This document shows, in pieces, positions 54,112 to 64,000 of a stretch of DNA of 64,000 nucleotides (position 1 is its first letter; each line of letters opens with the position of its first letter). The DNA comes from a virus. The notes beneath the pieces are model-generated. The model ran no database searches. It worked only from the letters and a program-made list of their open reading frames with translations, and was not told the DNA's origin. The DNA is taken from UHGV virus genome UHGV-0076293; one strand, written 5' to 3'. Position numbers and translations under genes: made by a program.

Positions 54112-54639
54112 ATGGCATATCGCGTCGACTTAACGAAAACTCCGAAACAAATTCTGGTAGATCGTATTAACTACGTTTTCGGGGTATCCTATACCACTGA
54201 CAACATCGATTTTAACGATAAAGGTGTGCAACCACTGACAAAAGATGAAGCCCGTCGTTACGGACTGGAATCGAAAGTGGCTGCTGACTTTAAAAACGGT
54301 GTTGCAGGGAACCAGGAATTTATCTTAACCCGTGTTGACCTGGCAACGTTCTTAGCTGACGAACCGGTTACGGTACCGAAAGGCGAAGTAACCAGCAGCC
54401 AAGAACTGGCAGACTATATCGTTGCTCAGACCGGTATTGATTTGACTGAAGACGACATTATGATCGAGCCTATCAGTGAGGAACTCGATTCTTATGATGT
54501 TCGCTTAGTCCCGAATCACTTATCTTTTAAAGGAACGATTCCGGTCGTATTTACTGACCCCACACCACGTACGTTGGCGTCTCTCGTGACGAAACTTGCG
54601 CTGGACGGGTTCCGCCCTGGAGAATTAATCAATGTCTAA
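54112..54639 (+). CDS. hypothetical protein
   Basis: ATG at 54112 (track begins at TTG 54070). Confidence 0.45.
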   Translation: MAYRVDLTKTPKQILVDRINYVFGVSYTTDNIDFNDKGVQPLTKDEARRYGLESKVAADFKNGVAGNQEFILTRVDLATFLADEPVTVPKGEVTSSQELADYIVAQTGIDLTEDDIMIEPISEELDSYDVRLVPNHLSFKGTIPVVFTDPTPRTLASLVTKLALDGFRPGELINV

Positions 54640-55519
54640 TGTCAAAGTTTACGACGGTAAACTCTCGACGGTAACACTTAATGCGATGCGTCTGGCTACC
54701 GCATTAATTACCGGTGCCGATGTGCAATACCCACAGAAGTCCACACTGAATGAGTTTTATAAGCTCATGCAAACTCCAGTGCCGGACGGTAAAGCACGTC
54801 CCCATTTGCAGTACATGGCGATTGGTAACCGTGGCCACATGGTCGACACATCAGATGTTGTTGCTGATGTTGTTCCTGTAGCTAAAGAACCTATCGCGTC
54901 CGGGATGTTTTCACGCGTTCCGTTTGTCCTGCGTACTAAAGACAACGATTTGTCTGATGAACAGCGTAAGAACTACGCTTTCCGTACTCTGGAAACCATC
55001 AACAAACGTGAGTATTGGGCGTACTATTTAAAACGCATTGACATGCGTGCAGTAAAAACTACCGACTACGACATTAAGCGTGAGAACGGTGTTGAAACTG
55101 TAGAAGACTTTGTTTATACGGATACTGAACTGAACCCGGTACCGAAAGTGTTGCCGGACTACGATTACGACGATGACGGTACCGTTGCAATTCCTGATGG
55201 CCGTTATGTGGAATCAGGCGCAGACCTGGTTATTCCGTGGACGGACTTTGACGTTCAGGAGTACATGAACGTGACCAGCATTATGCGCGGTAGCCCTCGT
55301 AGTTCGATTATCTCTGAACTGGCACTGTGCTCTGGTTTAGACCAGGTAACGTCCGGTGACTCTGCCACAGGTTCGAAGTTCAGCTACACTGAAGCTATCG
55401 GTGTACAAGCCCTGTATTACATTTCGATGTTTACTAACCTGGCGCAGACGAACGATAAGCTGTCACTGACAATCCGTATCGGTCAACCTGCACCGTTCTT
55501 CTTAGGGACAGCGAATTAA
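54632..55519 (+). CDS. hypothetical protein (295 aa)
   Basis: ORF overlapping upstream stop. Confidence 0.5.
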   Translation: MSNVKVYDGKLSTVTLNAMRLATALITGADVQYPQKSTLNEFYKLMQTPVPDGKARPHLQYMAIGNRGHMVDTSDVVADVVPVAKEPIASGMFSRVPFVLRTKDNDLSDEQRKNYAFRTLETINKREYWAYYLKRIDMRAVKTTDYDIKRENGVETVEDFVYTDTELNPVPKVLPDYDYDDDGTVAIPDGRYVESGADLVIPWTDFDVQEYMNVTSIMRGSPRSSIISELALCSGLDQVTSGDSATGSKFSYTEAIGVQALYYISMFTNLAQTNDKLSLTIRIGQPAPFFLGTAN

Positions 55520-56163
55520 TGTTGATTCCTGAGCCGAGACTTCCCGATAAGATGGTCAGGATCGCGGCGATAGACCCCGGTACGAGCCATCTCGGGATGG
55601 CGGTGCTGGATTGGGAATATGGCAGCGACCAAGCCGAAGTGGTGTGGGCTGATACCATGCACGTATTAGACCCAACACATCCAAGTGCGTTTGCAGAGTG
55701 TGTCGGTAAACGCGACGATCGCTTAGTAAAACTCGAAGCGTGCTACCGTGAGTTTCTTCGGATTGCGCGTCCGACGTTTGTTGCAACAGAAACGCCGTTT
55801 ATGCGGCGGGCAAAACTCTCCGCGTACGAATCTGGCGTAGAGTTACAGCTGATGTTAAGACGAGCGTTATGGGACGTGTTTCCAGAGAAGGTGCTACACG
55901 GGTTCAATCCGATTATTGTAAAATCATTCGTTGGTGTGGAAGCGAAAGGAACGGACAAAACAGATATGTTTCGTGCCGTAACGAAGTTGTATCGCGACCA
56001 CGCGTTGTTTGACATTACAACGTTGGATGAGCACAGTATCGATGCCGTGGCGGTGGGGAATATCTTTGTCAGGGTAAACCTGTTAAACTTGAATAGTCTC
56101 CTACCGCCAAAACAAAAGTCTGCTAAGACAGCAAAACGGCGGAGAAGACGTCGGAGGAAATAG
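55519..56163 (+). CDS. ruvC: RuvC-like Holliday junction resolvase with poly-Arg C-terminal tail (KTAKRRRRRRRK)
   Basis: IAAIDPGTSHLGMAV vs RuvC ILGIDPGSRVTGYGV; ETPFM vs EQVFM; DEHSIDAVAVG vs ADAADALAIA. Confidence 0.6.
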   Translation: MLIPEPRLPDKMVRIAAIDPGTSHLGMAVLDWEYGSDQAEVVWADTMHVLDPTHPSAFAECVGKRDDRLVKLEACYREFLRIARPTFVATETPFMRRAKLSAYESGVELQLMLRRALWDVFPEKVLHGFNPIIVKSFVGVEAKGTDKTDMFRAVTKLYRDHALFDITTLDEHSIDAVAVGNIFVRVNLLNLNSLLPPKQKSAKTAKRRRRRRRK

Positions 56164-56165
56164 CG

Positions 56166-56744
56166 ATGTCGCAACCAACACAAGACGTGTCAGCAGCAAT
56201 TCTTGACATTCTTATCCAAGCAGGGAACAGAAAGTTAAGTAAAGAGCAGTCCGAAGAACTGTCTAAGATTCTCAAAGACAACTTCGGTGACGAAGTCTCT
56301 GTAGACGTAACACGGTCGGGTACAAAGATTCTGTCGGAGTTACGTCCAACGCTTCTTGAGAACCTTGGAAAGATGGCGGAAAACTTTCAGCAGCAAGCCA
56401 CAAATGCTGTAGAGAGTTTAGGTGACGAAGTAAGCAAAGAAACGATGTTGACACTGTGGCCGAAACTTGCTGGCGCACAGAAGTTCATTATTGTTCTGCT
56501 TGCATTCGCCACTGTTGTCGTGACAGGCTTCTTAGCGTACGACACTCATCAGAACTTTCCAAAAGACAGCATGGAAGTGTTGTTTGTATCCTTACTTCCG
56601 CTGTTCGGATTGGTAGTGTTCGCAACGTGGCCAATTAAAACATTGGCTTACAAGTCGTTGGAGATTGCTACCAAAGTTGTCGAGAAGAAACTTGAGAAAT
56701 CAGGTCAGGTCATCGCGAAGACAGAAACAAAGACAACGAAATAA
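56166..56744 (+). CDS. membrane protein with two predicted TM helices (192 aa)
   Basis: Hydrophobic stretches FIIVLLAFATVVVTGFLAY and VLFVSLLPLFGLVVFATWPI; followed by terminator. Confidence 0.5.
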   Translation: MSQPTQDVSAAILDILIQAGNRKLSKEQSEELSKILKDNFGDEVSVDVTRSGTKILSELRPTLLENLGKMAENFQQQATNAVESLGDEVSKETMLTLWPKLAGAQKFIIVLLAFATVVVTGFLAYDTHQNFPKDSMEVLFVSLLPLFGLVVFATWPIKTLAYKSLEIATKVVEKKLEKSGQVIAKTETKTTK

Positions 56745-56748
56745 AACC

Positions 56749-56786
56749 AACCTCTACCTTCGGGTAGAGGTTTTCTTCTTTTTATT
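56749..56786 (+). terminator. intrinsic terminator (cctctacc-ttcg-ggtagagg + T-run)
   Basis: Tetraloop hairpin + ttttcttctttttatttt. Confidence 0.7.
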
Positions 56787-56832
56787 TTACAATTTTTGAT
56801 CATACTGTGAGACTTCTAGCGAGGAGATTTAG

Positions 56833-57519
56833 ATGAAGGAATTGCAATTAAGAAAGCGTACTACTCTTATCCCCCTTAAGGAACTAAAACAGTGTCCCGT
56901 TTTCTACTCACCGAAAGATCACCTAGATTTATCTAAAGAGAAAAAGATTATTATTTCTGCCTTCCGAGAAGTAATCAATCTTCGTTATTTCGCGGCACCA
57001 ATGGATTGTGCTATCGAACATGCTATGTTGGATGGAAGAACGTCGCTTACAGTTTACGATTTGTTAGAAGAAAAGAATATCGGTATTGAAACTGGTATAC
57101 TGAGAGTAAACAAAAATGAGTTATTAGAAAGTCAAAAACAACTAATGACAGGTGTTCAATTACTCTTAGAGCAATATGGCTTCTATTCGGAAAAACCAAC
57201 TTCTGCGGTATCTACGCAACCCATCATCTGTGACCATGGGTTTGAGGTAGAATGGAAAACAATTCGAGGGCAAGATTTTATTTTAATACATTGGTTCGTT
57301 CCCTATCTTTGGAAAGAGCGTACCACAGTTTATGCTTTACTTGAATTCGCTGTCTACTGGAGCATTTATAAAAAAGAACGTGCTACTGCAATGAAAACGG
57401 TAATGACCACGCCGTTAAATCAACTTTTTACCTCTGGGTTAGAAACAGATTTTAACGAACTATGTACAACTATTTTCAAGATGGAGTATGGCTATGCACC
57501 AGTTGGATATAACCGCTGA
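56833..57519 (+). CDS. hypothetical protein (228 aa)
   Basis: ORF with GAGGAG RBS. Confidence 0.5.
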   Translation: MKELQLRKRTTLIPLKELKQCPVFYSPKDHLDLSKEKKIIISAFREVINLRYFAAPMDCAIEHAMLDGRTSLTVYDLLEEKNIGIETGILRVNKNELLESQKQLMTGVQLLLEQYGFYSEKPTSAVSTQPIICDHGFEVEWKTIRGQDFILIHWFVPYLWKERTTVYALLEFAVYWSIYKKERATAMKTVMTTPLNQLFTSGLETDFNELCTTIFKMEYGYAPVGYNR

Positions 57520-57970
57520 TAAAATCTCCGCTAAATTTCCACAATTACGTGAATACATCAACGACTTAAATTCAATTCGGGAAACACCGGTTAGAATTAC
57601 GTTAGCAGTTGAAGATGATATTACTCACGGTATTGCGATCTGGGAGCCGGGTAATCTTATTTATCTGGTGGTGGCGGAAGGTTCTCGACGTTTCGGTGTT
57701 GGTTCGTTTTTATTGCAATACGTTCAATTGAATTCCGATCGTCAAATGGTGACGTGCCGTGTCCACCCTTCGAACATTGACGGCCTGTGTTTCTTTTCGA
57801 AAAAGGGCTACCAGATTGACCGTTGGTATATCGCCAGCGACTCTCGTCGGTATTTTCGTATGACGAACGGTAACGTTGTTTCGTCATACGCCCCGCCGGA
57901 AGAAGGATATTTGGTGGATTTTATCGAAAACACGCCCATCTTTCTCTCTGTTGCGGATAAAATTTATTAA
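57488..57970 (+). CDS. GNAT-family N-acetyltransferase (putative)
   Basis: LVVAEGSRRFGVGSFLLQYV fits the GNAT acetyl-CoA binding motif A (R-x-x-G-x-G/A); 160 aa. Confidence 0.45.
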   Translation: MAMHQLDITADKISAKFPQLREYINDLNSIRETPVRITLAVEDDITHGIAIWEPGNLIYLVVAEGSRRFGVGSFLLQYVQLNSDRQMVTCRVHPSNIDGLCFFSKKGYQIDRWYIASDSRRYFRMTNGNVVSSYAPPEEGYLVDFIENTPIFLSVADKIY

Positions 57971-57986
57971 CCGTTGAGAGTCTAAA

Positions 57987-58463
57987 ATGATACGTGTCGA
58001 ATATGAGACGCGGTGCTTAGAAGACAATCGAGCAAAAGCATTACGTTGTGTTGAAATCGTCCCCGCACACGAACTGGATATTCAAGCTGGTAAGGTTCGG
58101 GGCGTTCCGGTTAAGATCGTACAACACAGCCATTGTTCGCAATATAAAGAGAAAGCTGTCCCAGTAGTACGTTCCAGTAAACGAGAAGACTTTTCAGAAC
58201 TCCGTAAGTGTTTTCAACGACACTACCGCCGGAGTAAATGGAAGGTGTTGGTATTAATGTTAGTCGACGATTTCATTAAAGACCTGGTTTGGGAAGAAGT
58301 GCTTAAAGAGCGTGGTTTTCAACCCAAACCGTTCTCGTATCACTGGGAACGTTTCAAAAAGAAATACCACGAGTCATTGCGTTGGTCTCCGAACACACGG
58401 AATATGATGCCACGTTTGGAATCAATGCCTTGGCTTCGTGTTTATCTCGATGAGGTAAACTGA
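57987..58463 (+). CDS. hypothetical protein (158 aa)
   Basis: ORF. Confidence 0.45.
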   Translation: MIRVEYETRCLEDNRAKALRCVEIVPAHELDIQAGKVRGVPVKIVQHSHCSQYKEKAVPVVRSSKREDFSELRKCFQRHYRRSKWKVLVLMLVDDFIKDLVWEEVLKERGFQPKPFSYHWERFKKKYHESLRWSPNTRNMMPRLESMPWLRVYLDEVN

Positions 58464-58852
58464 TGAAACGTTTTATTACTCCCTTTCTAATGTTACTTTC
58501 GTTTTCCGTATTAGCGGATTTTAAACCTTACGATATCAGTCGTTACGAACCCGCTGTTCCTGGCGATAAACCGGTTGTGTTTAAAGCAGGTGACCAACCC
58601 GTCACTGTGGTTCAAAACGATGAGTTTGCAGTGGTGAACTACGGCAAAACGGAGTTATGCCCTGCGGGTGGATTTTATCTGGTGAACATCAAACGTCGGA
58701 CTTACCAGTTTGTTGATCCGGGTAGCTGCTCTGCAACGGTTAAGGTAACGTTAGAAACCGTACCTTACACGAATAAAAACATTAATATACAACGTTTAAC
58801 CTTTTATGCGGGTGATGAAATCACAGCACGTTATCCGTTATACGGGTATTAG
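58463..58852 (+). CDS. secreted/periplasmic small protein (N-terminal signal peptide)
   Basis: MKRFITPFLMLLSFSVLADF: basic n-region, hydrophobic core, cleavage-like LA-D; GAGG RBS. Confidence 0.5.
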   Translation: MKRFITPFLMLLSFSVLADFKPYDISRYEPAVPGDKPVVFKAGDQPVTVVQNDEFAVVNYGKTELCPAGGFYLVNIKRRTYQFVDPGSCSATVKVTLETVPYTNKNINIQRLTFYAGDEITARYPLYGY

Positions 58853-58875
58853 TGATTAGCCCCCACGGAGTTCGT

Positions 58876-59514
58876 ATGTCTTTTGTAATTGATTTCGACG
58901 TTGGCCACAGACAGAACTTACTTAATCTCGTTAGTTATTGTAACAGCGACAGTGTACGGAAAAAGCTTTCGGCTGAAAAGGTAGACGTTACGCTCGTCGG
59001 TGCCCCAACACCTGAAGGGCGCTATAAGGTAAAGTTAACGAACCGTAACGACATAAACGATGCGGTACTGATTACCTACACAAAGCTTCAACTGAACGAC
59101 TTCCTTGAGATTCCCGCCAAGTATCTGGATTGGTTTGATTTCGAAAACGGTCAACCTAAGAACTACGATACGTGGGCAGCTTCCGCTAAAGTCGCTGTAG
59201 AGAAAATGTGCCAAGACCGAGGTATGGTGTTATCGCGCGCTTGGGACACCGGTTCACAGTGTCATGTTGAGTTTGACGAGTCTATCGAACGGTATGTGGT
59301 TGTTTACGAGTGCGACTCTTTTATTTATAGTGCGAGAAACCGATTCATCTTACCTCTACACTTAGGGCAGGTGATTAACGACACGACATTAGACGGTCTT
59401 AATTACAATAACGAACTGAACAAGAAACCATTGGCGGATTTGGACGGTGAGTTAGAAGTGTGGATGGGTCAGGCGTTGGCTGAGACAGTAGTCTTAAGCG
59501 GCCTGGAAGTGTAA
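58876..59514 (+). CDS. hypothetical protein
   Basis: ATG at 58876 with ACGGAG RBS (track begins 58852). Confidence 0.45.
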   Translation: MSFVIDFDVGHRQNLLNLVSYCNSDSVRKKLSAEKVDVTLVGAPTPEGRYKVKLTNRNDINDAVLITYTKLQLNDFLEIPAKYLDWFDFENGQPKNYDTWAASAKVAVEKMCQDRGMVLSRAWDTGSQCHVEFDESIERYVVVYECDSFIYSARNRFILPLHLGQVINDTTLDGLNYNNELNKKPLADLDGELEVWMGQALAETVVLSGLEV

Positions 59515-59526
59515 TAGTAACGGTGT

Positions 59527-59569
59527 GTAGAGAGAGCTTTCGGGCTCTCTCTACTTTTCTTTTTTTTTT
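59527..59569 (+). terminator. strong intrinsic terminator (gtagagagagc-tttcg-ggctctctctac + T-run)
   Basis: 11-bp stem + T13. Confidence 0.75.
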
Positions 59570-59598
59570 CATTATCGACGGTCTTTATGGAGGTGACT

Positions 59599-60153
59599 AT
59601 GAAAGAATATAGAATTGCGATCATCGGGTCTCGAGAAACACCGGAAGACGTTATGCAGGAAATGTTAGAAACGTTACGGGAAGGGTTTCGAATCTTACGA
59701 AAGAAAGGCTACACGATTACCACCCGTTCTGGAGGGTGTTATAAAGGCCCAGACCAACTTCAGTTTATGATAGCACGTACCGAGGACGTTAAGAGCGTTT
59801 GTTATCTGCCGGATGAAAAGAAAATGTGGTTAGGGAAAATACACCCTAAGGTAGAGTTTCGTTATATCCCACAAGACGTTCAGTATCGTGCAGTTGTTGC
59901 TTCACTCCACCCAAACCCAGATAAGCTCTCACCGATTGCCTGGGCGTTACACGGTCGTAATCTGAACATCATCGCAGGTGACCGCTTAGACGAACCGGTA
60001 GACGCAGTATATTACTTTAGCGACCACGACAAACACGGAAACGCAAAGGGTGGTACTGCGATGGGTGTAAAATACGCGAAGTCAATCGACGTTCCTTGTT
60101 ACTATCATACCGCCGATCGAGATAAGTGGTTGGAAAGTCTTCGTTTATTATGA
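59599..60153 (+). CDS. DprA/Smf-like (SLOG-type Rossmann) protein, putative
   Basis: IAIIGSRETP...TRSGGCYKGPD...GGT resembles DprA/SLOG GSR, SGxAxGxD and GGT motifs; ATG 59599 with GGAGGTGA RBS (track begins 59587). Confidence 0.35.
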   Translation: MKEYRIAIIGSRETPEDVMQEMLETLREGFRILRKKGYTITTRSGGCYKGPDQLQFMIARTEDVKSVCYLPDEKKMWLGKIHPKVEFRYIPQDVQYRAVVASLHPNPDKLSPIAWALHGRNLNIIAGDRLDEPVDAVYYFSDHDKHGNAKGGTAMGVKYAKSIDVPCYYHTADRDKWLESLRLL

Positions 60154-60276
60154 ACTTGACTTTAACCGCGTAGTTGAGTTCAGCGATTCACCGTGTGATG
60201 GGAACAGAAGTTACTGCGTATCCGTTAGCAGGGTGAACTGGGTAAAAGTAAGATCAAAGCAAACGAGTAAATTATC

Positions 60277-61410
60277 ATGTCAACGTTAGATAGCGACTTA
60301 GAAGTGCTTTGTGACGATTACGACCGACTCGTAGCGTTAGAATCCATTGGAGTAAAAGACAATTATCCGGCTATCGTTGCTATCCGTAAACGTTGGCTTT
60401 TGGATGATGTGGTTGTTGCGTCAGAGTCTGCGGCCATGATGCATCGTGCGCAGTTTTTGTCAGACACGGAACCTGATAAAGGGATTGGCAAAGCGGCGGC
60501 GCGACTCACCGGTCGTGCGGTTCGTGGCGTAAGTCGGGTAGCAGGACGTGCTGCCAGTGCAGGTGCAAAAGCATCAGCGAACTTTGCAGGTAAACATTCC
60601 AAACAACTTGCTTTACGTTTTGTGGATTTTGCTGAGGCTGCCGGTAAAGAAGTCATTAAGGAATTAAAAGAAGCGACGTCTAAAACGACGACCTTAGAAC
60701 GCAAACTGCAAAAGTTAACCGCACGTCTAAGTTTAATCGGTGACAAAGACACTTTAAAACCGGTTGACTGCGACACGGGAAGTTGGACGACCAAAGTCTG
60801 TTTAGAAGACAAACCTAACGTAAAAGCATGTATTGAGTTCAGTAAGAACCTGAACGCAATGGATGCGATGGTCAACGAGTATACCGTTAAAACACGCACC
60901 ATTATCGGTAAGAGCAAGAAAGTTACCGAGAGTGGTTTGGAGAAAGTAGGCCGGTCAACGAACTGGGCGATTAAACGTAGCGCAGGATTGTTCGGTATTA
61001 TTGATCCGTTTAAAACGGTGAAAGCATATCCGTGGCCAGGTAACGTGGTGGTCGTTGAACACGACAGCGGTAAGATTGAGTGGGCGATTGCCCGTGATGG
61101 TGATTTTGGCCACACAATCAAATCGCTGAACTTACACGAAATCGGTTCAGCACTCGATGCCGTTAGAAACATTATCCGTGCTTTACGTCAGCGTGGTACG
61201 AAACGACGTAGCGTTGGTTATACCGGTATTTACGATGAAATTCAGCGAATGAAAAAAGAACTGAAATCGTTAGACGGTCGTGAGTTACGTGACGCTACCG
61301 TTCGGTATAAGAACGCACTGCGTTTAGAAGATGCGTTTACTACCTCGTTAGTGCGTGTTGCGGAAGGCTTACTGGAATGGTGCAGGTTGTCGCTGATTGA
61401 GGTTAAATAA
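60277..61410 (+). CDS. hypothetical protein (377 aa)
   Basis: ORF; Ala/Arg-rich region ARLTGRAVRGVSRVAGRAASAGAKASA. Confidence 0.5.
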   Translation: MSTLDSDLEVLCDDYDRLVALESIGVKDNYPAIVAIRKRWLLDDVVVASESAAMMHRAQFLSDTEPDKGIGKAAARLTGRAVRGVSRVAGRAASAGAKASANFAGKHSKQLALRFVDFAEAAGKEVIKELKEATSKTTTLERKLQKLTARLSLIGDKDTLKPVDCDTGSWTTKVCLEDKPNVKACIEFSKNLNAMDAMVNEYTVKTRTIIGKSKKVTESGLEKVGRSTNWAIKRSAGLFGIIDPFKTVKAYPWPGNVVVVEHDSGKIEWAIARDGDFGHTIKSLNLHEIGSALDAVRNIIRALRQRGTKRRSVGYTGIYDEIQRMKKELKSLDGRELRDATVRYKNALRLEDAFTTSLVRVAEGLLEWCRLSLIEVK

Positions 61411-61877
61411 TGCGTATCACTATTATTCTCAAACCCGACAGTAAATACGGAAAGTTATACGGCGACCAGGTACTCAAACTGCACAACATGCTGTTCGCAG
61501 AAGAGAAAGTGCGTATTAGTCAGTTAACCGGCCGTGACACGTTCAACCCCATCGAACGTTTAGAAGAGATTTGGCCTCAAGATTATCTCTGTGCGTGTGC
61601 GGTAGGTGACAACGAACAGCTTCTGGGATTTATGACGTTCTCATTGGGTTCTTGCTCAAAAGACACGTTTGTTTACATCGGGAATTACTATGTGATTCCT
61701 GAAGCACGTTCTCAAGGGGTAGGGCGTGCGCTTATGGACAAAGTCCGTGAATACGGAAAGTCCAAAGGTTGTGGTTGGATGAGTCTGGATGTGTTAGACA
61801 ACAACGTTAAAGCTATCTCCTTGTATGAGAAAATGGGATTCCGTACCGAATGCAGGGAAATGATAAAGGAAATCTAA
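61410..61877 (+). CDS. GNAT-family N-acetyltransferase
   Basis: YVIPEARSQGVGRALMDKVREYGKSKGCGWMSLDVLDNNVKAISLYEKMGF: canonical GNAT motif A/B; 155 aa. Confidence 0.65.
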   Translation: MRITIILKPDSKYGKLYGDQVLKLHNMLFAEEKVRISQLTGRDTFNPIERLEEIWPQDYLCACAVGDNEQLLGFMTFSLGSCSKDTFVYIGNYYVIPEARSQGVGRALMDKVREYGKSKGCGWMSLDVLDNNVKAISLYEKMGFRTECREMIKEI

Positions 61878-61878
61878 A

Positions 61879-62511
61879 ATGGCTGCAAGATTCGTACCGT
61901 TTCACGACGGGTCTAGATATACTTTTGGTGTAGAGCGTTACGCTGTGGGTTTTCGTCCTGGTTGGAGAGTGGTACGAATCGATAAAACGTGTTGGTGTTT
62001 ACCGACCAGCATTTTTGATTACTTTACACCTGAAGCTTTAACGCGGTTTGTTTCTCTGGGTTCACCCACGCAACGTGCTGCGTGGGAAAAGAATATTCGT
62101 TGCCGTTATTTGGGTAAAACACGAAACGCGACGGTACGTGGTGTTTATCATGTAGGGAGTCGTTGGTTACACGTTGAGCCAACACATCCCCGTTGTGCCG
62201 TCACGCCCTTTAACGGTGAATATCATGGTCAGGTGTATACGGGGTTACATTTTGCGTTCCCGGATAACCCTGACCTTAATTATTTTCTGGCTACCCCGAA
62301 AGACGTTACATTAGCCACGTTCTATAAATACCTTTTGTTCTATCCTGCCTACGTCGTTGCAGAATACGAACACAAAGCATTTCCTCTGCCTTACGGTAGA
62401 GACAGGAGATTAGCAGGATGTTCTATCGAGAACTTCAGCAATACACCGACGCTCTCCGAAAAGCGACCATTGATGCTCACAACAACCTCAGAGATGTCGT
62501 TAGCGTTATAG
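61879..62511 (+). CDS. hypothetical protein; 3' end overlaps the next gene by ~94 nt
   Basis: ORF; low-complexity C-terminal extension in the overlap. Confidence 0.45.
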   Translation: MAARFVPFHDGSRYTFGVERYAVGFRPGWRVVRIDKTCWCLPTSIFDYFTPEALTRFVSLGSPTQRAAWEKNIRCRYLGKTRNATVRGVYHVGSRWLHVEPTHPRCAVTPFNGEYHGQVYTGLHFAFPDNPDLNYFLATPKDVTLATFYKYLLFYPAYVVAEYEHKAFPLPYGRDRRLAGCSIENFSNTPTLSEKRPLMLTTTSEMSLAL

Positions 62512-62789
62512 AACAGTGTTCGGATGTATTGTATGCGGAAACGATTGAAACGCCAACCCACGACGGTGTGAAATCGCTCCAGCTACACGTTTGTAGTAAA
62601 CACGGCAGTCTGTCGTTAAACTTCCGTGTAGGTTTAGATTATTACATGGTTCGTAAGAGCTATTTAAGTTGTGACGGTGACCTCTATCCGGTTGTCTGGA
62701 ACAACGATTATTCTAAGTTTGTTTATCCACTTGAAGAACACCGACGCACGGTTTATGAATTTGTGAAAGCTGTTCTCGAGGGGTTCTAA
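62418..62789 (+). CDS. hypothetical protein (123 aa)
   Basis: ATG with GGAGA RBS. Confidence 0.45.
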   Translation: MFYRELQQYTDALRKATIDAHNNLRDVVSVIEQCSDVLYAETIETPTHDGVKSLQLHVCSKHGSLSLNFRVGLDYYMVRKSYLSCDGDLYPVVWNNDYSKFVYPLEEHRRTVYEFVKAVLEGF

Positions 62790-62802
62790 AGAGGGTATTG
62801 TG

Positions 62803-63408
62803 ATGTCAGAGATGATTCTCGACTCATTACTGCTGATTACGGTGGCGTATATCAACAAAACCGGTAAGCTACCAAAGCGTGGGGTGACGATTGAACGGGA
62901 GGGGTTTAAGCACCGCTACCCGTTAACGAAAGTTCTCGATTTGGCAGCGCGGTTAGCGAAGATGCGTAGACCGACGTCAGACGCAGCACCGAAGTACGTA
63001 TTAGTGGTACTTCAACGTGCGATTTCTGAAGTTCGTCGTGCGCGTCGTCGTGCCTCGTTTCGCTTTTATCCAAACTCTACGCAACAGGTTGTGGGGGTCT
63101 ATAACGAAATGGTTGTTGATTTACGTACCGAACACTGTAACGTTACGGGACTTGCGTATAACCGCCTCAAACGCATTCTGGACAACTCAGACGCGTTTAC
63201 CACACCGCAAGAAGGCCAAGCGGCTTTAGCGCTTCTACGTGGCGCTGAGCTCGTTATTGTGGACACCGCAGTACAGGCCGCAAGAATGCAGCACTATCTT
63301 GCTAAGCAAGGGTTAGTTATACTGTGTGTACCGTCTGCACAGGCTGCTAATCTTACCGCACCGGAAACGTCAGAAGTGTGGAGTGGTCCGATTGTTGACC
63401 ATCAATAA
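62803..63408 (+). CDS. hypothetical protein
   Basis: ATG at 62803 with AGAGGG RBS (track begins at GTG 62800). Confidence 0.5.
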   Translation: MSEMILDSLLLITVAYINKTGKLPKRGVTIEREGFKHRYPLTKVLDLAARLAKMRRPTSDAAPKYVLVVLQRAISEVRRARRRASFRFYPNSTQQVVGVYNEMVVDLRTEHCNVTGLAYNRLKRILDNSDAFTTPQEGQAALALLRGAELVIVDTAVQAARMQHYLAKQGLVILCVPSAQAANLTAPETSEVWSGPIVDHQ

Positions 63409-63415
63409 AACCTTA

Positions 63416-63449
63416 CCCCTACCGTTAGGTAGGGGCGGGTTTCTTTTTT
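63416..63449 (+). terminator. intrinsic terminator (cccctacc-gtta-ggtagggg + T-run)
   Basis: 8-bp stem + tttcttttttat. Confidence 0.65.
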
Positions 63450-63546
63450 ATCCTAAAATTTATTACAACCAATAGCTATTATGTGAACGCCGGTATGGAA
63501 TAAAGAAGTATCGGTTTAAATTTTTGTGCGTAAAGGTAAAACAATA

Positions 63547-64000
63547 ATGCTTAAGACAGTGTCTATTGATGGCCCTGACTTTTCTGGGAAATCGACGTTG
63601 TGCAAAATAGTAAAAGGTATGCTGGAATCTGCGGGGTTAAAGGTCTGCATCCGTAATCACCCTACGACGGAGACCGAAGCGGGTATCCGCGCACGCAGTT
63701 TAGTCGTTCAGTCCGCAGCAAAAGCAAAAATTGCTGAAGCGATGTGCGACGATTTCCTCCACACGCTAGACCATGTTGTTGACGATTACGATGTTGTTAT
63801 TTTCGACAGGTTCTGTCCCTCTACAATCGTTTACCAGGGCGTCGACGGTAAAGACGAAGTTTTCCGACGCAAGCTAACGCGTCATTTCCACGCGCCAGAT
63901 TTATACGTTTGGACAGATGTGGATTACGACGGCGCAGTAGCACGCTTTAAGAAACGAGTAGAAGAACAAGGTAAGAATTGGGACGATGAAGTTCTTACCG
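63547..64000 (+). CDS. tmk: thymidylate (dTMP) kinase, 3' end beyond window
   Basis: P-loop GPDFSGKST and VIFDRFCPSTIVYQG matching Tmk P-loop and DR(Y/F)..S..AYQG region; ORF runs to window end. Confidence 0.7.
   Translation, partial: MLKTVSIDGPDFSGKSTLCKIVKGMLESAGLKVCIRNHPTTETEAGIRARSLVVQSAAKAKIAEAMCDDFLHTLDHVVDDYDVVIFDRFCPSTIVYQGVDGKDEVFRRKLTRHFHAPDLYVWTDVDYDGAVARFKKRVEEQGKNWDDEVLT

Follow-up and report, generated by a model that had tools for sequence, protein, structure and literature searches.

A conserved gene block of SPN3US-like jumbo phages with a candidate head-packaged acetyltransferase

Two GNAT acetyltransferase genes, a DprA/SLOG-like gene and a gene for a signal-peptide protein lie close together on the + strand at 56.7-63.5 kb of the UHGV virus genome UHGV-0076293, of which we analysed a stretch of 64,000 nucleotides (the window). 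The locus raises the question of whether these genes form an accessory island or belong to the conserved part of the phage genome. A first-pass annotation, made from the sequence without database searches, had taken the former view, describing an accessory cluster between terminators at 56786 and 63449 that served host manipulation or anti-defence rather than morphogenesis. The four open reading frames (ORFs) that it singled out, a GNAT at 57488-57970, a secreted protein at 58463-58852, a DprA/SLOG-like protein at 59599-60153 and a second GNAT at 61410-61877, are all present in the ORF list at those coordinates, and its two terminators correspond to hairpins at 56749-56772 and 63416-63435 with T-runs. 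The interpretation fared less well than the coordinates. In our judgement, the region is probably a clade-specific, vertically conserved segment of SPN3US-like phages, organised in two units, in which the second GNAT (GNAT2) is packaged in the head and delivered with the DNA. The features on which this reading turns are the following.

56749..56786, + strand: intrinsic terminator (10-bp stem at 56749-56772, T-run to about 56786), closing the upstream unit and marking the left edge of unit A
59527..59570, + strand: strong internal intrinsic terminator (12-bp stem at 59527-59554 and a long T-run), splitting units A and B
60277..61410, + strand: predicted phiKZ-type internal head protein, ortholog of SPN3US gp94, 377 amino acids (aa) (PF12699, 31.3 bits against a gathering score of 27; phrog_2497 'internal head protein', E = 4e-73)
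61410..61877, + strand: GNAT2, canonical GNAT, ortholog of SPN3US gp95, 155 aa (PF00583, E = 9e-19, 68.3 bits against 20.7)
63416..63449, + strand: intrinsic terminator (hairpin at 63416-63435, T-run to about 63449), closing unit B

Conservation and organisation of the block

Megablast of the region against 50,697 phage records gave no match, and relatives were visible at the protein level only. By its protein similarities, the window belongs to an SPN3US/Asesino-like (phiKZ-related) jumbo phage: tblastn with the first GNAT (GNAT1) found 62 records, all from SPN3US-like jumbo phages of Erwinia, Salmonella, Escherichia, Cronobacter and Proteus, with Asesino, phiEaH2 and Stratton as the best matches (68% identity), and a PHROGs scan assigned 10 of 10 proteins to a family, nine of them strongly. 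We compared eight relatives (SPN3US, Asesino, phiEaH2, Caitlin, CR5, Kwan, pEa_SNUABM_29 and pEa_SNUABM_6), which represent the genera Seoulvirus, Erskinevirus, Machinavirus, Derbicusvirus and Wellingtonvirus. Their annotated regions match the window in gene content, gene order and flanks, which are virion structural protein 10 and a RuvC-like resolvase upstream and thymidylate kinase downstream; the block thus follows the portal/virion-protein/RuvC region of the genome. A local tblastn matrix placed an ortholog of nearly every block gene in all eight; the secreted-protein gene is missing in CR5, the gp91-like gene is missing in Caitlin and pEa_SNUABM_6, two Machinavirus members, and the gp87-like gene is barely recognisable across the relatives. 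Two metagenomic relatives repeat the arrangement, and for one of them the compared proteins share about 89-98% identity with those of the window.

The term accessory cluster does not suit a block that is conserved gene for gene in eight of eight relatives from five genera and in two metagenomic relatives. A comparison of presence and absence in related phages, which the first-pass annotation had itself proposed, found the block at the same position in every clade relative examined; that annotation had named full conservation together with housekeeping annotations as the contrary case, and the conservation in all close relatives is there, whereas the annotations are not housekeeping ones. SPN3US genes 87-98, Asesino gp103-114, phiEaH2, Caitlin, Kwan and CR5 resemble the window in gene order, flanks and terminator junctions, and the SPN3US-like relatives share with it an overlap of the gp96-like and gp97-like genes and the pairing of the internal head protein with a GNAT. 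The window differs from them in that it lacks gp93-like and gp99-like genes, encodes a shorter DprA-like protein and has Gly at GNAT2 position 91. A concatenated query located the two upstream anchor genes in 259 phiKZ-like records and the block only in the SPN3US-like subgroup, the other approximately 200 records keeping the flanking anchor genes without it. Since the block is confined to this subgroup and conserved inside it, it is clade-specific yet core, not accessory, within the clade. Its proteins are 27-68% identical to their orthologs, compared with 63-85% for the upstream virion protein, and the block genes are faster-evolving but vertically inherited. The ORF list and Pfam revealed no integrase or other mobility gene in the block and we found no composition anomaly, its GC content (0.40-0.46) lying inside the range of the remaining window; a mobile or accessory island is therefore not what the fixed position in all clade relatives examined, the lack of mobility genes and the normal GC content describe. 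This gene block is known and conserved, with relatives that have been annotated and in part characterised, and the window adds a new and divergent member to it.

Inside the block, the genes are predicted to form two terminator-bounded transcription units, A (56833-59514) and B (59599-63408). The + strand between 56.7 and 63.5 kb carries 11 closely packed ORFs and three terminators of the hairpin and T-run type, among which the internal one at 59527-59554 has a stem of 12 bp, the longest; we counted 18 terminator-like sites in the region, where shuffled sequence gave 10.0 +/- 3.0. SPN3US and Asesino have terminators at the same three junctions, 3' of the gp86-like gene, 3' of the gp91-like gene and immediately 5' of the thymidylate kinase gene, which in the window begins at 63548, 3' of the unit B terminator. 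Relatives have an extra terminator 3' of the secreted-protein gene that the window lineage lacks. Within each unit the genes abut or overlap. Unit A comprises a divergent unknown, GNAT1, a basic unknown, the secreted small beta protein and the gp91-like tail-protein ortholog, and unit B comprises the DprA-type SLOG protein, the internal head protein, GNAT2, the gp97-like small protein and two unknowns. Shine-Dalgarno spacing, the N-termini of orthologs and gene calls made independently in the nearest relative point to 57494 as the likely true start of GNAT1, to 58876 for the gp91-like gene, to 59599 for the DprA-like gene and to 62803 for the gp98-like gene. The internal terminator and the internal head protein are the two important features that the first-pass annotation had omitted.

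GNAT2 and the internal head protein

The gene directly before GNAT2 (60277-61410) is assigned to the phiKZ-type internal head proteins by its Pfam similarity, the PF12699 (phiKZ_IP) match spanning residues 108-369. The first-pass annotation had counted it among several small unknowns with unusual overlaps; the overlaps are real and conserved, but this 377-aa product is an internal head protein and not a small unknown. Its predicted N-terminal propeptide sites are VALE22 and VASE50, each with S as the next residue. The six sequences aligned, five of orthologs and one of a paralog, keep both sites unchanged. No other site in the block fits the complete logo published for the SPN3US prohead protease gp245, which is A-x-E with a preference for Val at P4 and Ser at P1'. 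Cleavage of SPN3US gp94 at ALE-22, ARE-51 and/or AME-60 was rated possible from gel migration and peptide coverage (PMC10052503). The product resembles the phiKZ-like internal head proteins (PF12699) in scoring above the Pfam gathering score, in its N-terminal propeptide with A-x-E motifs and in having a head-located ortholog. Unlike the major SPN3US ejection proteins gp53 and gp54, it has an ortholog of low abundance (48 peptide-spectrum matches, PSM) and is uniquely paired with a GNAT gene. A second, shorter paralog (about 330 aa) lies directly 5' of the main copy in phiEaH2, Kwan and pEa_SNUABM_29, and the phiEaH2 copy, the one paralog aligned, keeps both protease sites. A 269-aa ORF on the minus strand (60363-61172), antisense to the internal head protein gene and wholly inside this conserved coding region, has no independent support and is probably spurious.

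Scheuch et al. 2023 (PMC10052503, Tables S2, S3 and S6) analysed CsCl-purified SPN3US virions and tailless heads, and by their data 4 of the 11 block genes have orthologs that are SPN3US virion proteins. The ortholog of 58876-59514, gp91, gave about 41 PSM in virions and 0 in tailless heads, which places it in the tail, whereas gp94 is a head protein found in both preparations and gp97, the ortholog of 62418-62789, is a head protein listed at 13.8 kDa (PMC10052503). The GNAT2 ortholog gp95 was likewise assigned to the head, with about 41 PSM in virions and about 32 in heads, an intact N-terminus and no protease motif; it was detected again in a 37-slice head analysis, and its function is left blank in Table S6 (PMC10052503). 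The orthologs of 56166-56744 and 62803-63408, gp86 and gp98, were classed as non-virion, gp98 with trace PSMs only, and gp87-90, gp92, gp96 and gp93, the last without a window counterpart, are not listed among the virion proteins (PMC10052503). As a module, a block with an internal head protein among four orthologs of virion proteins does not fit host manipulation or anti-defence rather than morphogenesis. It remains plausible that individual genes serve host manipulation, and GNAT2 may well act on the host.

GNAT2 is the canonical GNAT that the first-pass annotation had recognised, and it is also above the Pfam threshold for PF13508 and PF13673. The acetyl-CoA loop R100-S-Q-G103-V-G105 (R100xxG103xG105) and Y139 are invariant among its orthologs, Y139 aligning with the Tyr of the SSAT2 LYKALG segment. 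Its start codon and the stop codon of the internal head protein gene share 1 nt in the window, in SPN3US and in the nearest relative, and the two genes are adjacent in all relatives examined, with gaps of 12 and 51 nt in Caitlin and CR5. The lineage is narrow: full-length matches of at least 40% identity occurred in only three clusters among 1.84 billion representative proteins, and among phages GNAT2 is restricted to the SPN3US-like clade (58 records). In a search of the PDB, the nearest solved structures were human SSAT2, nourseothricin acetyltransferase and the Dpa polyamine acetyltransferase, the best match being SSAT2 (2bei, E = 5e-10, C-terminal half only).

Li et al. (PNAS 2023; PMC9992855) expressed phage spermidine acetyltransferase candidates in E. 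coli BL21 delta-speG, where phiEaH2 YP_007237670 and Caitlin YP_009292176 made N-acetylspermidine. Both proteins, as well as SPN3US YP_009153389 (gp95), proved on checking to be positional orthologs of GNAT2, which is 49% identical to the phiEaH2, 45% to the Caitlin and 47% to the SPN3US protein. Spermidine acetylation is experimentally supported in the GNAT2 family but not uniform across it. The window protein has the same length, acetyl-CoA loop, catalytic Tyr and neighbours as the phiEaH2 and Caitlin spermidine N-acetyltransferases and differs from them in having Gly where both active enzymes have His. Since position 91 is Gly in GNAT2 and His in the active enzymes, polyamine activity cannot simply be transferred to it, and polyamine acetylation is the leading but unproven substrate assignment. 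The residue at position 91 tracks activity in the three assayed enzymes (His active, Tyr inactive), and position 130 is Asp in the window GNAT2 and the active enzymes and Gly in SPN3US and pEa_SNUABM_29. The column of codon 91 (61680-61682) is hypervariable by lineage, with His, Tyr, Gly, Thr, Trp, Gln, Asn and Cys.

Taken together, the head location of gp95 and the spermidine acetylation by orthologs suggest a capsid-delivered acetyltransferase. Our literature search found no paper linking jumbo-phage virions with an ejected acetyltransferase, nor one in which the head location and the spermidine activity were connected. We propose that GNAT2 would be made late together with the internal head protein, would enter the prohead uncleaved and in low copy number, and would leave the capsid with the DNA and other ejection proteins. 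At the very start of infection, it could then use host acetyl-CoA to acetylate either a small amine, such as a polyamine of the spermidine type, or a host protein. We infer its packaging in the window phage, its ejection, its timing and its physiological substrate alike. An extended version of this proposal is tentative and, in our view, rather doubtful: GNAT2 and its orthologs would be packed via the neighbouring internal head protein, be ejected and act before phage transcription on polyamines or a lineage-specific host target, with the variation at position 91 reflecting host retargeting. Early expression of the phage spermidine acetyltransferases is a speculation of the authors of the enzyme study (PMC9992855).

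Several observations weigh against a head-packaged, DNA-delivered GNAT2. The evidence for packaging comes from an SPN3US ortholog that is only 47% identical. That ortholog has no propeptide or known capsid-targeting signal (PMC10052503), and GNAT2 has no A-x-E site fitting the full logo and hence no cleaved capsid-targeting propeptide of the T4 Alt type. The division into units is not a clean functional one, since unit A encodes a tail protein alongside non-virion proteins; the promoter-like motifs at the head of the units show no enrichment in the window, which leaves the timing conjectural. SSAT2 Glu92 corresponds to the proposed general base of SSAT enzymes; in its column, His stands in both active enzymes, Tyr in SPN3US and Gly91 in the window lineage. 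The NCBIfam PaiA model reached 25.4 bits on GNAT2 against a cutoff of 250, no SpeG model was among the 25 NCBIfam families shown, and no curated spermidine acetyltransferase model was reached. The enzyme assay used heterologous overexpression, and SPN3US YP_009153389 made no N-acetylspermidine in it (PMC9992855); GNATs are, moreover, promiscuous.

T4 Alt offers a functional analogy only. This ADP-ribosyltransferase is packaged in the head and injected with the DNA (PMC5694885), a low-copy host-modifying enzyme among the internal proteins that is available before phage gene expression (PMC5694885). It differs from GNAT2 in fold and chemistry (ADP-ribosyltransferase versus GNAT) and in its capsid-targeting sequence, which the prohead protease trims; its ejection with the DNA also stands against that of SPN3US gp95 and GNAT2, which we infer. 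If GNAT2 is ejected, this phage would deliver a small-molecule or protein acetyltransferase with its DNA, which would bear on genome protection and establishment of chimalliviruses before the phage nucleus and on the proposed link between polyamines and host defence. If true, a jumbo phage of the nucleus-forming kind would bring a metabolite-modifying enzyme into the cell in its virion. The idea of capsid delivery is testable in SPN3US, for which amber genetics and virion proteomics are established.

Competing explanations

The alternative of an accessory island is in our estimation unlikely. In it, the GNATs would be toxins or modifiers of small molecules that are paired with neutralising neighbours, and the SLOG protein would counter defence by binding nucleotides or single-stranded DNA (ssDNA). 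The block is indeed missing from most phiKZ-like phages, its proteins, at 36-68% identity against 63-85%, evolve faster than the flanking virion protein, and small gains and losses occur in it (the secreted protein in CR5, gp91 in two Machinavirus members, the gp93-like and gp99-like genes in the window); an anti-CRISPR and anti-restriction rationale for phage spermidine acetyltransferases has been proposed as well (PMC9992855). Such an island is nevertheless hard to reconcile with gene order and content kept across five genera and metagenomic relatives, with the absence of integrase or mobility genes and of a GC anomaly, and with four orthologs that are virion components, the internal head protein included. 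Its toxin part, which the first-pass annotation had also raised, found nothing to lean on: Pfam and NCBIfam showed no RHH/DUF1778-type antitoxin among the neighbour proteins of the GNATs, and no AtaT/TacT-type chain was among the PDB matches of GNAT1 (E <= 0.1) or GNAT2 (E <= 1e-3). PADLOC returned for the block one marginal, unrelated match, Cas11a, for 62418-62789 (E = 0.0045). We therefore rejected a GNAT toxin-antitoxin reading, the block GNATs having neither the antitoxin-like neighbours nor the similarity of AtaT/TacT/KacT-type toxins. For annotation, the label of an accessory anti-defence island is accordingly replaced by that of a conserved SPN3US-clade block with probable head and tail components.

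Two further explanations accept the head location of gp95 and dispute its meaning. GNAT2 might act in the assembling particle and not in the host, acetylating phage head proteins (for instance at lysines or N-termini of the internal head protein or of other ejection proteins) or capsid polyamines for maturation or charge tuning, so that its presence in mature heads would be a leftover. The tight coupling of GNAT2 with the internal head protein gene in all relatives and the head location of the SPN3US ortholog would suit this role, as would the negative spermidine result for gp95 and the finding that the top curated-model similarity of GNAT2 in NCBIfam is to RimI-type protein N-acetyltransferases (49 bits). 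We consider it about as improbable as the island, for two orthologs acetylate spermidine in cells and the nearest solved relatives are diamine/polyamine enzymes and not protein acetyltransferases. The word 'acetyl' never occurs in the text of three SPN3US virion papers, which is weak evidence either way, as the 2023 mass spectra were searched with oxidation and deamidation as the only variable modifications (PMC10052503). Still less probable is that GNAT2 is a cytoplasmic enzyme whose detection in heads reflects passive, low-level entrapment without function and whose adjacency to the internal head protein gene is historical. Counts for gp95 are low (about 41 PSM against 6,698 for the major capsid protein), it has no propeptide or protease site, and the two genes do not overlap in Caitlin and CR5, all as entrapment would have it. 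Yet the counts were reproducible over three replicates each of virions and tailless heads purified by step and buoyant-density CsCl gradients, the head-to-virion ratio of about 1.1 is that of bona fide head proteins, and the protein was seen again in the 37-slice analysis. Most abundant non-virion proteins were not seen at the level of gp95, and the adjacency is kept in every relative examined.

Remaining genes and flanking sequences

The other genes of the two units are listed here.

56833..57519, + strand: gp87-like protein, 228 aa, the fastest-evolving gene of the block (phrog_8034, E = 1.6e-14; 24% identity to Asesino gp103, E = 1e-8)
57494..57970 (ORF opens at 57488), + strand: GNAT1, clade-restricted GNAT, ortholog of SPN3US gp88 (phrog_7861, E = 1.6e-69)
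57987..58463, + strand: gp89-like basic protein, 158 aa, isoelectric point 9.6, in 8 of 8 relatives (phrog_9187, E = 2.5e-69)
58463..58852, + strand: gp90-like small all-beta protein, predicted secreted or periplasmic (Sec-type signal peptide, cleavage after VLA18; two invariant Cys)
58876..59514 (ORF opens at GTG 58852, likely start ATG 58876), + strand: gp91-like protein, tail-protein ortholog in SPN3US (phrog_10571, E = 4.5e-61)
59599..60153 (ORF opens at 59587), + strand: predicted stand-alone SLOG protein with a DprA-type Rossmann domain, ortholog of SPN3US gp92, 184 aa
61879..62511, + strand: gp96-like protein, 210 aa, in all relatives; ortholog not detected in SPN3US virions (phrog_9255, E = 1.5e-61)
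62418..62789, + strand: gp97-like small protein, 123 aa, ortholog of an SPN3US head protein; shares 94 nt with the preceding gene, in the -1 frame
62803..63408, + strand: gp98-like basic protein, about 201 aa (phrog_8075, E = 5.9e-77)

GNAT1 is, by profile similarity, a true GNAT restricted to this clade. Taken alone it stays under the Pfam threshold (PF13508, 20 bits versus 27). Its orthologs carry precomputed PF13508/PF00583 matches, and the profile built from them matched 31 PDB chains, all of them GNATs. Over the aligned region, SPN3US gp88 and the crystal structure 7DQG, entered in the PDB as a 'putative acetyltransferase', have the same sequence, and 7DQG matches GNAT1 at E = 5.5e-60; a literature search for a paper on this structure found none. 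With an ortholog profile that matches GNATs only and gp88 represented by 7DQG, the first GNAT of the first-pass annotation is genuine. The acetyl-CoA loop R67-x-x-G70-x-G/A is conserved, R67 and G70 being invariant, and the family comprises only 12 clusters in 5.8 billion sequences, all from the SPN3US-like clade. The best profile matches were YjaB (3e-5) and the putative acetyltransferase 3ld2, followed by Ard1/Naa-type N-terminal acetyltransferases, with RimI further down, so the similarities lean towards protein acetyltransferases. The ortholog gp88 was not detected in SPN3US virions (PMC10052503).

The product of 59599-60153 is predicted to be a stand-alone DprA-type SLOG domain, in keeping with the DprA/SLOG-like Rossmann call of the first-pass annotation. 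Its ortholog profile gave only chance matches against PDB sequences, none of them to DprA, and the fold is thus established by structure prediction: the model from a 20-sequence alignment (pLDDT, a confidence score of the prediction, 94.5) has a SLOG-type Rossmann-like fold. The model also resembles ShosA (12.6), followed by the Moco carrier protein, YpsA, LOG enzymes and the SLOG domain of ThsA. The GSR, SGGCxxGPD, HGRNxxI and GGT motifs are invariant or near-invariant in the family. Pfam YAcAr and DprA matches are under threshold; for PF02481, the window protein has no match and 2 of the 20 family members have weak ones (best E = 2.5e-4). Many DprAs have flanking SAM-like and winged-helix domains. 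Unlike bacterial DprA, the phage protein is a single 184-aa domain without extra, flanking domains and under the Pfam DprA threshold, and it is shorter than the copies of its relatives, lacking a 14-aa insert. Its likeness to DprA with respect to DNA function is at the motif level only. By analogy with what has been proposed for DprA homologs of jumbo phages (PMC7824862), the most economical role would be to bind ssDNA or mediate recombination. Mimicry of a ShosA-type antitoxin is a speculative alternative; the PADLOC models, which we assume to include ShosA, gave no match to the protein.

The signal peptide of 58463-58852 (MKR followed by FITPFLMLLSFSVLA, with D as the first residue after the cut) was judged by inspection and has a positively charged n-region, a hydrophobic h-region and small residues at -3 and -1. 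The first-pass call of a signal peptide stands, for the pattern is kept in 18 homologs despite sequence drift, with an invariant Ala at -1. Two Cys of the mature part and a C-terminal RYPLYxY are conserved in the same 18 homologs, all from this clade, and the all-beta model of the protein had no informative structural neighbour. The gp87-like protein had no Pfam or NCBIfam match, ortholog profiles of the gp89-, gp96- and gp98-like proteins had no matches in the PDB, and NCBIfam had no match for any of the block's unknown proteins. The gp96-like and gp97-like genes overlap in all relatives by 40-94 nt (62418-62511 in the window), with the downstream gene in the -1 frame; every relative keeps the gp97-like start ATGTTCTAT (MFY...) and, ahead of it, a stretch rich in purines. 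We rejected a programmed -1 frameshift joining 61879-62511 to 62418-62789, as the overlap in the window contains no slippery heptamer; the conserved downstream start and the listing of gp97 as a 13.8-kDa head protein also counter it.

Two promoter-like sequences head the transcription units. One, TTAC-N~14-(T/A)NTGTG(A/T)A, lies at 56787-56810 and 63463-63486, after the terminators 5' of unit A and of thymidylate kinase, and the other, TAT(A/G)GGAGG, lies 5' of unit B at 59586-59593, directly at the ribosome-binding site of the DprA-like gene. Both keep their position at the same junctions in relatives. Neither the TTAC element (6 found, 7.45 expected) nor TAT(A/G)GGAGG (2 found, 1.81 expected) is enriched in the window, and we therefore neither claim them as promoters nor read expression timing from them. 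A further candidate motif, TTWTTACAA, was dropped, having one match only.

Just 5' of the block, a virion protein and a RuvC-like resolvase (54632-56163) are conserved in the 259 phiKZ-like phage records; the virion protein matches the phiKZ gene PHIKZ139 and carries PF23838/DUF7208 in relatives. By their distribution, these genes mark the border between the family-wide core and the clade-specific block. The gp86-like protein (56166-56744, 192 aa), directly before the first terminator, is probably a membrane protein because it has two hydrophobic stretches, KFIIVLLAFATVVVTGFLAY and VLFVSLLPLFGLVVFATWPI. We looked in the window for remnants of a gp93-like gene (about 90 aa, before the internal head protein gene) and a gp99-like gene (about 250 aa, before thymidylate kinase) and found none; both are present in most relatives and absent from the window (60154-60276 and 63409-63547) and its nearest metagenomic relative.

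The nearest relatives of the window, with 84-98% protein identity, are unannotated metagenomic or assembly contigs, namely ENA ERZ24910761 (119.6 kb) and Logan runs. An Enterobacter host for the window phage is hinted at by a partial protein deposited under Enterobacter quasiroggenkampii, which shares 94% identity with the secreted protein. A short distance 3' of thymidylate kinase, relatives encode further, larger GNATs (285-342 aa), as a tandem pair in CR5; in this clade, the genomic neighbourhood thus contains three or four GNAT genes at the least.

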